A DNA stretch of 64,000 nucleotides from an uncultured Thermoleophilia bacterium (GTDB taxonomy: Bacteria; Actinomycetota; Thermoleophilia; UBA2241), in assembly GCA_903862845.1 (NCBI GenBank), contig CAIOZS010000103.1, positions 6,187 through 70,186 on the forward strand. Reading direction: 5' to 3'. The position numbers and the translations under genes were made by a program. The notes below the pieces were generated by a model, which did not search any database, was not told the origin of the DNA, and saw only the letters and a list, made by a program, of their open reading frames with translations. Positions 49,958 through 52,096 of the stretch are shown here, piece by piece. Each line of letters starts with the position of its first letter. Position 1 is the stretch's first letter.

Positions 49958-52096
49958 ATGGAGGACGGAGAGGTGCCAGAAGCAGAGTCAGGGAAGTCGC
50001 TGAGCCGACGTGTGGCCGAAGCGGCGCCCAAGGACGCGGGACGCGGCCTTGCGCGGCTCGACCCACAGGATCTGGAGCAGTTGGGAGTCGGTATCGGTGA
50101 CGTGGTCGAGGTGGCGGGGCAGCGCACCACGGTCGCTCGGGCGATGCCCACGTACGCGGAATCGCGCGGCCGCGGCGTGGTACAGATCGACGGCATCCTC
50201 CGCGCCAATGCCGGTGCCGGACTGGACGAACAGGTCACGGTGCGGCCGGCCGTCGTGCAGCCGGCCCGCGCGATCCTGCTGGCGCCCGTCGAGAGGAGCC
50301 GGGGGGTGGCCGGCGCACAGGCCGGGTACCTGGCCAAGCTCCTCGACGGGATCCCGGTCGTCGCCGGAGACCGCGTGCGCGTCAATCTCATCGGCACGCG
50401 CATGCAGAACTACACGGTCGTCCAGACGACGCCCAGCGGCCCGGTGCTCATCGGCACCTCGACGAAAGTCCGTACCGAGGGCGAGGCCAAGGGCGAGGCC
50501 GGCGCCGGCGCCCCCATCACCTACGAGGACATCGGCGGCCTGCACCGCGAGACGCAGCGCATCCGCGAGATGATCGAGCTGCCGCTCAAGTACCCGGAGG
50601 TCTTCGAGCGACTCGGCATCGACCCTCCCAAGGGCGTGCTGCTGCACGGGCCGCCCGGCACCGGCAAGACACTCATCGCGCGTGCCGTGGCCGCCGAGAC
50701 CAGCGCCCACTTCGTGCACATCAACGGGCCCGAGGTCATCGACAAGTGGTACGGGTCGAGCGAGGCGCGGCTGCGCGAGATCTTCGACGAGGCCGAGCGC
50801 AATGCGCCGGCCATCATCTTCATCGACGAGATCGACGCCCTGGCTCCGAAGCGCGAGGAGATGAGCGGCGACCGCCAGGTCGAACGGCGCGTCGTGGCGC
50901 AGCTTCTGGCCATCATGGATGGGCTCGAGTCGCGCGGCCAGGTGATCGTGGTGGCCGCCACCAATATCCCCAACACCCTCGACCCGGCGCTGCGCCGCCC
51001 CGGCCGCTTCGACCGCGAGATCGAGATCGGCGCGCCCGACAAGCGGGGCCGCATCGAGATTCTCGAGATCCACAGCCGAGGCATGCCGCTGGCGGACGAT
51101 GTCGATCTCGAGAAGCTGGCGACGAGCACGCACGGGTTCGTGGGCGCCGATCTGGCCGCGCTCTGCCGCGAAGCGGCGATGGGCACGCTCCGCCGCTTCT
51201 TGCCCGACGTGGACTTTTCGCAGTCGAACATCCCCTACGAGAAGCTGGAGGAGATGGAGGTCTCGGCCGACGACTTCGCGAGCGCCCTCGGGGAGGTGGA
51301 GCCTTCGGCGATCCGCGAGGTGTTCACCGAGACTCCCGACGTGACCTGGGACGACGTCGGTGGGCTGCAGGACGTCAAGCGCATGCTCATCGAGGCGGTC
51401 GAGTGGCCGCTCACGTGGGCGCCGCTCTACGCGAGGGCGGGCATCCGCCCGGCCCGTGGCATCATGCTGCACGGCGCCCCCGGCACCGGCAAGACCCTGC
51501 TCGCCAAGGCGCTGGCCCATGAGAGCGAGGTCAACTTCATCTCGGTCAAGGGCCCTCAGCTCCTCAGCATGTGGGTGGGGGAGTCGGAGCGCGGCGTGCG
51601 CGAGGTGTTTCGCAAAGCTCGCCAGGTGGCGCCCTGCATCGTGTTCTTCGACGAGATCGACGCGCTCACCCCTCGCCGCGGCGGCGGCGAGGGGGCGGCG
51701 GTCGAGCGCGTGGTCAGCCAGTTCCTGACTGAGCTCGACGGGATCGAGGCCCTCAAGGGCGTGGTGGTGCTCGGAGCCACCAACCGTATCGACATGCTCG
51801 ATCCGGCGCTGCTGCGCCCCGGCCGCTTTGACATCAAGGTGGAGCTGCCGGTGCCCGACCGCGAGGCCTGCCTCGCGATCCTGCGCGTCCATACGCGCAA
51901 GATGCCGCTCGCCGACGACGTCGACGTGGAAGCCCTGGCGGCGGCCAGCGAAGGCTTCGTGGGGGCCGACATCGAGGGCCTCTGCCGCAGTGCCGCGATG
52001 CTCGCCATGCGCGAGTTCCTCGAGCAGCCCGACGCCGCCGTCGAACAGTTCTTCGTCTCGCGGCGGCACTTCGACCGAGCACTCTCGAGCGACTGA
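49958..52096 (+). CDS. CDC48/VCP-like double AAA+ ATPase (N-domain + D1 + D2)
   Basis: Two Walker A sites (GPPGTGKT and GAPGTGKT), two Walker B sites ([10 protein letters not shown] and [10 protein letters not shown]), second region of homology in both, N-terminal double-psi-barrel-like region. Confidence 0.9.

Follow-up and report, generated by a model that had tools for sequence, protein, structure and literature searches.

Among the Gvp proteins, reviews recognise one ATP-hydrolysing member, GvpN (PMC9501494), which may prepare or proofread GvpA (PMC11445434) and is thought to power or proofread its incorporation (PMC11445434, PMC9501494). GvpA itself is very hydrophobic, aggregates even in sodium dodecyl sulfate (SDS), is proteotoxic, and probably travels under escort between ribosome and shell, with GvpF as its proposed primary chaperone-like partner (PMC11445434). 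In the absence of chaperones, GvpA, GvpJ and GvpM form inclusion bodies (PMC9501494). ArsA-type ATPases and Hsp20 were noted bioinformatically in 2010 in gvp clusters of Bacteroidetes/Chlorobi, delta-proteobacteria, cyanobacteria and Acidobacteria, in gas-vesicle passages that do not mention CDC48 (PMC2963123). Here we describe a gene for a CDC48/VAT-family double-ring AAA+ ATPase located within a gas-vesicle (gvp) cluster of an uncultured Thermoleophilia bacterium, on a stretch of 64,000 nucleotides (contig CAIOZS010000103.1, positions 6,187 to 70,186), referred to as the window. We are nearly certain that the protein belongs to the CDC48 family and is dedicated to the gvp cluster; it is predicted to be a co-transcribed component of a widespread bacterial type of gvp cluster, and not a housekeeping enzyme.

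When the protein was searched against domain hidden Markov models, the reading of the initial annotation, a CDC48/VCP-like protein of 712 residues with an N-domain and two complete AAA cassettes, was borne out. The NCBIfam family TIGR01243 ('CDC48 family AAA ATPase') matched residues 17–708 with 927.1 bits, against a cutoff of 802.65 (E = 7e-279). In Pfam, CDC48_N (PF02359, the double-psi barrel) covered residues 18–98 (86 bits, cutoff 35.1) and CDC48_2 (PF02933, the beta-clam) residues 122–175 (35.5 bits, cutoff 22.4), and two AAA domains were found, each with its helical lid (AAA_lid_3). D1 contains a Walker A motif (GPPGTGKT, residues 231–238), a pore loop (KWYGSSE, 263–269), a Walker B motif (IIFIDE, 286–291), sensor-1 (ATN, 334–336) and Arg fingers (343–352). 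The same series recurs in D2 (GAPGTGKT, 506–513; MWVGESE, 538–544; IVFFDE, 561–566; ATN, 607–609; Arg fingers, 616–625). The pore-1 loops are aromatic in both rings (KWYG in D1, MWVG in D2), and the D1 loop was aromatic across all commonly occurring loop variants of 93 gvp-context sequences. It may be noted that a GTG at 49973, which has a better Shine–Dalgarno sequence (GGAGGA), may be the true start of the gene.

The closest solved relative was Thermoplasma VAT (5g4f; 764 bits over residues 10–694, E = 1.4e-228), followed by p97/Cdc48 (660 bits, full length). An AlphaFold2 monomer model built from a 12-sequence alignment (mean per-residue confidence, pLDDT, 72; predicted template-modelling score, pTM, 0.45) showed a beta-rich region at residues 15–173 and two alpha/beta AAA modules, the confidence for the N-domain being partial. 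When the model was compared with the PDB using Foldseek, the top 50 matches were all full-length p97/VCP/Cdc48 protomers (43–45% identity, E about 1e-70); their TM-scores were low, most likely because the domain orientation of the monomer model was poor. VAT and archaeal Cdc48 share with the window protein the N-D1-D2 layout and the aromatic pore-1 loops of both rings, a hallmark of processive unfoldases. Unlike them, the window protein is bacterial, lacks an HbYX tail, and has a strongly diverged N-domain, a two-residue insertion in the D1 pore-2 region, and a gvp operon with chaperone-type neighbours around it. The D1 pore loop of p97 is not aromatic, in contrast to that of the window protein, which also differs from p97 in being without a ubiquitin system, known adaptor motifs or a C-terminal PUB/PUL-binding tail. 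Judged from its sequence, in which every testable defining feature was found, the protein belongs to the CDC48/VCP/VAT family and is predicted to be a catalytically complete enzyme of the hexameric unfoldase class.

Other identities were rejected. The AAA ATPases of Actinomycetota include ARC/Mpa and the Cdc48-like Cpa; the comparison covered ARC/Mpa, whose model (TIGR03689) scored 403.6 bits, below its cutoff of 504.75; it matched per AAA domain only, and its best-scoring stretch covered the D2 AAA region alone (446–656). An identity as a proteasome activator was discarded, as the HbYX proteasome-docking motif is not present at the C-terminus (...RALSSD). GvpN (TIGR02640), likewise an ATPase encoded by gvp clusters, was not among the best 25 NCBIfam families of the protein; it is a single-ring ATPase of the AAA_5 (MoxR) type, in contrast to the double-ring CDC48.

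The plus strand from 41.2 to 56.9 kb was found to be a coherent gvp cluster, running from gvpA (41197) to a gvpF/L gene (56922) with the CDC48 gene mid-way. Its 20 genes are co-directional, and most junctions are either of 57 bp or less or have overlapping stop and start codons. The CDC48 gene lies 57 bp from the second of two zinc-finger genes (ZnF1, ZnF2); AGGAGG comes right after its stop, followed 14 nt on by the GTG of a gene for a GvpF/L protein fused to a J-domain (GvpF/L-J). This location, inside a gvp operon that also has a canonical gvpN at 44247, and between zinc-finger proteins and a J-domain fusion, had been proposed in the initial annotation and was confirmed in each respect (Table 1). 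Promoter- and terminator-like sites were not above shuffle expectation (0 promoters versus 0.7, 6 terminators versus 7.1), a scan that is uninformative in this range of G+C content (GC), the genome having about 68–70%. Many open reading frames (ORFs) of the window are spurious because of this GC content; orf56762 (56762–57877) was rejected as one of them, judged by composition.

Conservation of the linkage was assayed in related loci, the window proteins serving as tblastn queries for their gvp genes. A scan of genomes gave 17 loci with a CDC48 of 66–96% identity, in metagenome-assembled genomes (MAGs) of Thermoleophilia and other Actinomycetota and in Chloroflexota (Anaerolineae, a Ktedonobacter-labelled MAG and a Chloroflexus-labelled MAG). 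From a metagenome scan with the family alignment, the best 80 (57–73% identity) of at least 584 relatives were taken, giving 97 loci in all (57–96% identity). This sample, collected by conserved peptides and similarity rank, is non-random, and most hosts are MAGs. All of the 17 genome loci were syntenic and had the GvpF/L-J gene directly after CDC48; where the flanks allowed, the order was unassigned gene–GvpN...Hsp20–M48-like–GvpF/L–GvpG–GvpO–(small Gvp)–ZnF–CDC48–GvpF/L-J. At least three core gvp families were found at 53 of 53 loci with at least 10 kb of total flank, and at 66 of 67 with at least 6 kb. A GvpF/L gene lay within 400 bp downstream of CDC48 in 59 of 77 loci. The initial annotation had allowed that the gene might prove generally unlinked to gvp genes in relatives, which was not the case; its scope was too narrow, the cluster type being widespread across several phyla and no local oddity.

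Named linked members belong to at least five phyla (Thermoleophilia, Chloroflexota, Bacteroidota, Ignavibacteriota and Marinimicrobia), and the GC content over the CDC48 loci ranged from 0.32 to 0.70. A distant low-GC group (Bacteroidota/Bacteroidales/Prolixibacteraceae/Draconibacterium, Ignavibacteriota, Marinimicrobia) had the same components in another order, GvpA–ZnF–GvpN–ZnF–Hsp20–CDC48–GvpF/L-J–GvpF/L.... The locus L109 of a Bacteroidota MAG (GCA_037141915.1) reads sigma-54 response regulator–GvpA–...–ZnF–GvpN–...–Hsp20–ArsA ATPase–CDC48, continuing with GvpF/L+DnaJ (12188–13228), two further GvpF/L genes, GvpG–...–GvpK and a histidine kinase. Unlike the two-component genes of the window, the flanks of L109 contain a sigma-54 response regulator and hybrid kinases. 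One Thermoleophilia MAG (MFD04492.bin.1.102) carried two complete gvp clusters on different contigs (L002 and L017), each with its own CDC48; these were 94% and 80% identical to that of the window, respectively, and the other cluster proteins had diverged correspondingly.

Partner genes were counted in 34 well-flanked CDC48-linked clusters. GvpF/L was present in all 34, GvpA and Hsp20 in 33 each, GvpN in 32, ZnF in 31 and a J-domain in 28, whereas ArsA (18/34) and the M48-like gene (16/34) were found less often. Since GvpN co-occurs with it, CDC48 is additional to GvpN, and the idea of a GvpN replacement was rejected. The M48-like gene was found in 13 of 13 clusters of the group with at least 66% identity, but in only 3 of the remaining 21; in a subgroup of 63–67% identity it immediately precedes CDC48, a place taken by ArsA in Bacteroidota. 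Its product looks soluble and has an invariant HEHAH; Peptidase_M48 was matched by 8 of 14 orthologues (best E = 7e-6), and a profile search found no sequence relative in the PDB. In L109 the ArsA/Get3-type ATPase (8994–9932) stands between Hsp20 and CDC48, so that three ATPases (GvpN, ArsA and CDC48) are encoded there; no ArsA was found in the window. Across loci, the divergence of CDC48 tracked that of GvpN (rho 0.83), GvpF/L-J (0.81), GvpG (0.78), ZnF (0.74) and Hsp20 (0.70), which fits inheritance as a unit, with a contribution from the shared species phylogeny.

When 1.84 billion cluster representatives were searched exhaustively, the family was seen to merge gradually with CDC48s at large once identity fell below about 57%. 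When a single neighbour-joining (NJ) tree was computed, all 94 gvp-context sequences fell into one clade, together with 2 of the 95 representatives (P0182 and P0183), whose terminal branches are very long (0.51 and 0.65). With these two removed, the clade at 57% identity or more was recovered in 75 of 100 NJ bootstraps. Sequence divergence was uneven along the protein. Identity of the N-domain to that of the window had a median of 0.45 for linked sequences (minimum 0.38) and of 0.26 for unlinked representatives (maximum 0.40), compared with 0.74 versus 0.59 for D1 and 0.63 versus 0.50 for D2. Signature positions of the linked set included K25, M63, R70, Q76 and Y124 in the N-domain, and F420, Y427 and I452 in the D1–D2 linker. 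The linked set also has a two-residue insertion near Q307, in the region of the D1 pore-2 loop, where 83 of 90 out-group sequences have a gap. HbYX-like tails were seen in 2 of 93 linked and 11 of 90 out-group sequences. Such a pattern would be expected if a conserved motor had a re-specialised substrate- or adaptor-binding domain and no proteasome partner.

CDC48s outside the gvp context, both archaeal and bacterial, were also recorded. No gvp genes were found within 10 kb at P0126 (56% identity, haloarchaeon-like neighbourhood), P0131 (56%), P0165 (54%) and P0137 (54%), the contigs of P0123 and P0128 being too short for a call, and a plasmid collection gave only unlinked CDC48s, all below 60% identity. 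P0182 (L102, 10001–12139) is a divergent CDC48 with one recorded AAA domain and flanking transposase genes, and may be a decaying, mobilised copy. Haloarchaeal-type CDC48s outside the gvp context adjoin Hsp20-like genes (L103, 3185–3637; plasmid CP031304.1 of Natrinema thermotolerans), hinting that a partnership of CDC48 with small heat-shock proteins may be more general.

As to function, we tentatively favour, at somewhat less than even chances, a proteostasis module encoded by the cluster, in which CDC48 would free subunits of the GvpA family, by extraction or unfolding, from holdase complexes or from assemblies that have gone off-pathway, and so allow productive insertion. What is observed is that the protein belongs to the CDC48 family, has its motifs intact, is encoded inside the operon, and is linked to gvp genes and diverges together with them across relatives; what it acts on, through which adaptors and in which direction (quality control on the assembly side) we infer. 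The diverged N-domain would recognise shell proteins of the GvpA/J/S family, or the chaperone complexes that hold them: Hsp20/GvpH, the DnaJ-type zinc-finger proteins, and the GvpF/L with its J-domain, which would bring in DnaK. These very hydrophobic, aggregation-prone subunits would then be threaded through the two rings with their aromatic pore loops and be unfolded or extracted. Off-pathway assemblies would be resolved in this way, and subunits competent for assembly would become available again to the growing vesicle, with CDC48 acting alongside GvpN. J-domains recruit Hsp70, and as GvpF is the proposed chaperone of GvpA, the J-domain fusion would bring Hsp70 to GvpA. A putative extra remodelling or quality-control step, as suggested in the initial annotation, is consistent with the conserved chaperone-type neighbours, while its other suggestion, a regulatory segregase, is less favoured.

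Several described machines would offer parallels for such a module. The logic of p97/VCP/Cdc48 as a segregase, in which adaptors dock on the N-domain and a motor extracts subunits, may be comparable. ClpB/Hsp104 with DnaK–DnaJ would be an analogue in mode of action only, being a double-ring AAA+ threading motor that rescues aggregates with a J-domain protein, Hsp70 and small heat-shock proteins; it belongs, however, to another AAA+ family, and no M-domain or Clp_N was seen in the window CDC48, whose cooperation with DnaK is inferred from the J-domain of the neighbouring GvpF/L alone. ArsA/Get3 gives a precedent for an additional ATPase in gvp clusters, and Get3-type proteins shield hydrophobic segments, but it is a P-loop ATPase outside AAA+ and coexists with CDC48 in L109.

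Several results weigh against these readings of dedication and assembly-side action. A clean 'gvp-specific clade' had to be given up, since the divergent P0182 and P0183, nested in the clade, are not gvp-linked, while P0129 (55% identity) and P0173 (51%) lie outside it and are linked. In consequence, the claim is held to a moderately supported clade, in a tree made by NJ only, with a fuzzy boundary at 51–56% identity. The second linked group, P0129 and P0173, joined the clade in only 0–1 of 100 NJ bootstraps, which makes a second recruitment of CDC48 to gvp clusters possible. At the P0173 locus (L107), CDC48 abuts gvpG and overlaps gvpF/L, and no ZnF or J-domain was found in the cluster. Within the main family, L030 (64% identity) is a real member without gvp linkage. 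In homology searches and cluster look-ups no cultured gas-vacuolate host was found, the named matches being MAGs or uncultured organisms. Well-studied gvp clusters make vesicles without CDC48, which is hence not universally required. Moreover, the evidence does not separate assembly-side action from disassembly or degradation.

Disassembly is the likeliest of the rivals, possible though doubtful as we see it. A CDC48 hexamer would here remove GvpA from vesicles that are collapsed, surplus or unwanted, and pass it on to a protease, the M48-like protein where this is present. Enzymes of the CDC48/p97/VAT type are well known for pulling subunits out of stable assemblies, aromatic residues occur in both pore loops as they do in processive unfoldases, and the M48-like protein, with its invariant HEHAH, accompanies all 13 clusters of the 66% group and adjoins CDC48 in the 63–67% subgroup. 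The same protein is nevertheless absent from most Bacteroidota-type clusters, where ArsA takes the position, and it is a putative protease with weak Pfam matches; the most constant partners (Hsp20, ZnF and the J-domain protein) are of the holdase or foldase type. If disassembly were true, it would mean ATP-driven turnover of an extremely stable structure and a means of lowering buoyancy. In a wider form of this idea, which we consider rather unlikely, CDC48-linked clusters would make up a distinct and widespread class of bacterial gas-vesicle systems organised around a dedicated proteostasis machine (CDC48, Hsp20, the DnaJ-type zinc-finger holdases and J-domain-tagged GvpF/L, with ArsA or the M48-like protein in some lineages), CDC48 would extract GvpA from the shell, and vesicles could be actively dismantled and recycled instead of just collapsing or being diluted out. 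The zinc-finger proteins or GvpF/L-J would in that case be the first natural adaptors known for a bacterial CDC48. The clients might also be GvpF/L, GvpG, GvpK and GvpJ/S instead of GvpA, stripped off the nascent vesicle or nucleation complex for reuse, much as NSF recycles SNAREs. We take this to be improbable, although the GvpF/L homologue is the gene most tightly coupled to CDC48, its co-divergence is among the strongest, and GvpL is a platform that binds nearly all Gvps (PMC9501494). Recycling of this kind leaves the companion Hsp20 and zinc-finger holdases unexplained, and clusters without CDC48 recycle their accessory factors unaided.

It is very improbable, in our view, that CDC48 would govern gvp expression through a regulator that it unfolds or extracts, much as GvpD acts on GvpE in haloarchaea. 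The NTP-binding repressor GvpD does provide a precedent (PMC9501494), and two-component regulators flank the clusters of both the window (37878–40979) and L109. The CDC48 gene, however, lies among structural and chaperone genes and does not adjoin the regulators, its constant partners are chaperone-type, and the flanking regulators change from one phylum to another, in contrast to the conserved CDC48. That the protein is an ordinary CDC48 with a housekeeping or proteasome-associated role, of the Cpa/ARC or archaeal Cdc48 kind, and stands next to gvp genes by chance is barely tenable. The host is actinobacterial (Thermoleophilia-like) and enzymes of the CDC48 family are general unfoldases, which would suit it. 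On the other side, the linkage is kept across phyla and two gene orders, unlinked CDC48s form separate and more distant groups, HbYX tails are rare in the linked set, and the ARC/Mpa model stayed below its cutoff. Several host phyla (Bacteroidota and most Chloroflexota) are not known to have 20S proteasomes. This explanation is largely refuted already.

The protein family is not new, as databases already annotate such genes as 'CDC48 family AAA ATPase'. Its association with gvp clusters in several phyla and the accompanying chaperone module nevertheless appear to be undescribed. In the full-text literature (subscription-only papers and supplements lay outside the scope), no paper linking CDC48/VCP/p97 to gvp clusters was found; the mention of Cdc48 in one gas-vesicle paper concerns a contaminant of nickel-nitrilotriacetic acid (Ni-NTA) purification. 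The linkage points to an ATP-driven step, undescribed as it appears, in the building or recycling of gas vesicles. A second, mechanistically well-understood unfoldase with defined chaperone partners would give a testable handle on GvpA solubility and shell insertion. Heterologous expression of many mined clusters fails when they are trimmed to 'core' genes, for which the lack of such an unfoldase may be a reason; the point bears on acoustic reporter genes. Little appears to be established on what bacterial CDC48 homologues do in the cell, on which substrates they act and which adaptors they use; the genomic context nominates a client family (GvpA/J/S) and, as candidate adaptors, ZnF, GvpF/L-J and Hsp20, in a setting free of any ubiquitin system.

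Table 1. Genes and protein regions of the gas-vesicle cluster and its upstream flank, numbered from the first nucleotide of the window.
Feature	Position	Strand	Remarks
GAF-PAS histidine kinase	37878–39893		Upstream of gvpA
Response regulator, receiver-only	39850–40254		Upstream of gvpA
Response regulator, OmpR-type	40257–40979		Upstream of gvpA
gvpA, major shell protein	41197–41412	+	82% identical to Anabaena GvpA; AGGAGG Shine–Dalgarno; cluster start
557-residue coiled-coil, apolipoprotein-like repeat protein	41547–43220	+	Directly after gvpA
Conserved protein, function unassigned	43447–44250	+	Stop overlaps gvpN start
gvpN, canonical single-AAA (AAA_5) ATPase	44247–45266	+	TIGR02640, 385 bits (cutoff 266.8); probable start 44247
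Two overlapping small ORFs	45271–45579, 45576–46019	+	Between gvpN and Hsp20
GvpH-like Hsp20 small heat-shock protein	46040–46633	+	Probable start 46049
M48-like putative zinc metalloprotease	46649–47683	+	HEHAH
gvpF/L	47676–48446	+	
gvpG	48455–48712	+	
gvpO	about 48795–49058	+	
ZnF1, DnaJ-type zinc-finger protein	49106–49501	+	Six CxxCxGxG repeats
ZnF2, paralogue of ZnF1	49541–49900	+	Six CxxCxGxG repeats; directly upstream of CDC48
CDC48/VAT-family double-ring AAA+ ATPase	49958–52096	+	ATG start; 712 residues
N-domain (CDC48_N + CDC48_2)	50009–50482	+	Pfam; most clade-specific part of the protein
D1 AAA module with lid	50555–51337	+	Walker A 50648–50671; pore loop 50744–50764; Walker B 50813–50830
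D2 AAA module with lid	51365–52027	+	Walker A 51473–51496; pore loop 51569–51589; Walker B 51638–51655
GvpF/L with C-terminal J-domain	52111–53154	+	GTG start; HPD intact, residues 287–289
GvpJ/S-like, C-terminal CxxC...CxxC zinc ribbon	53211–53582	+	
GvpA/J-family domain with two PH/GRAM-like repeats	53584–54606	+	Weak, sub-threshold Pfam GRAM and Vps36 GLUE matches
gvpK	54603–54926	+	
ORF with faint Hsp20-like C-terminus	54923–56086	+	N-terminal segment looks similar
gvpF/L, third in cluster	56083–56922	+	

The two-component genes upstream of gvpA are likely the regulators of the cluster. The coiled-coil protein that follows gvpA is possibly a GvpC-like stiffener of the outer surface; L107 and L109 likewise have coiled-coil ORFs at this place. 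No Pfam or NCBIfam match was obtained for the unassigned protein before GvpN, a homologue of which precedes gvpN in 12 of the 13 clusters of the 66% group. Three distal genes (53211–53582, 53584–54606 and 54923–56086) code for unusual fusions, the first of them, like the second, with a domain of the GvpA/J family. For the gene with the PH/GRAM-like repeats, the GTG at 53584 fits better, and the start at 53374 in the first-pass ORF is probably wrong. The two small ORFs between gvpN and Hsp20 are mutual paralogues, both starting with MRP[QK]GM and cross-matching in tblastn, and are coiled-coil-like. ZnF1 and ZnF2 are 56% identical to each other, and their six repeats make up almost the whole protein, compared with four in the zinc-finger domain of DnaJ; they resemble stand-alone DnaJ-like zinc-finger assembly chaperones.

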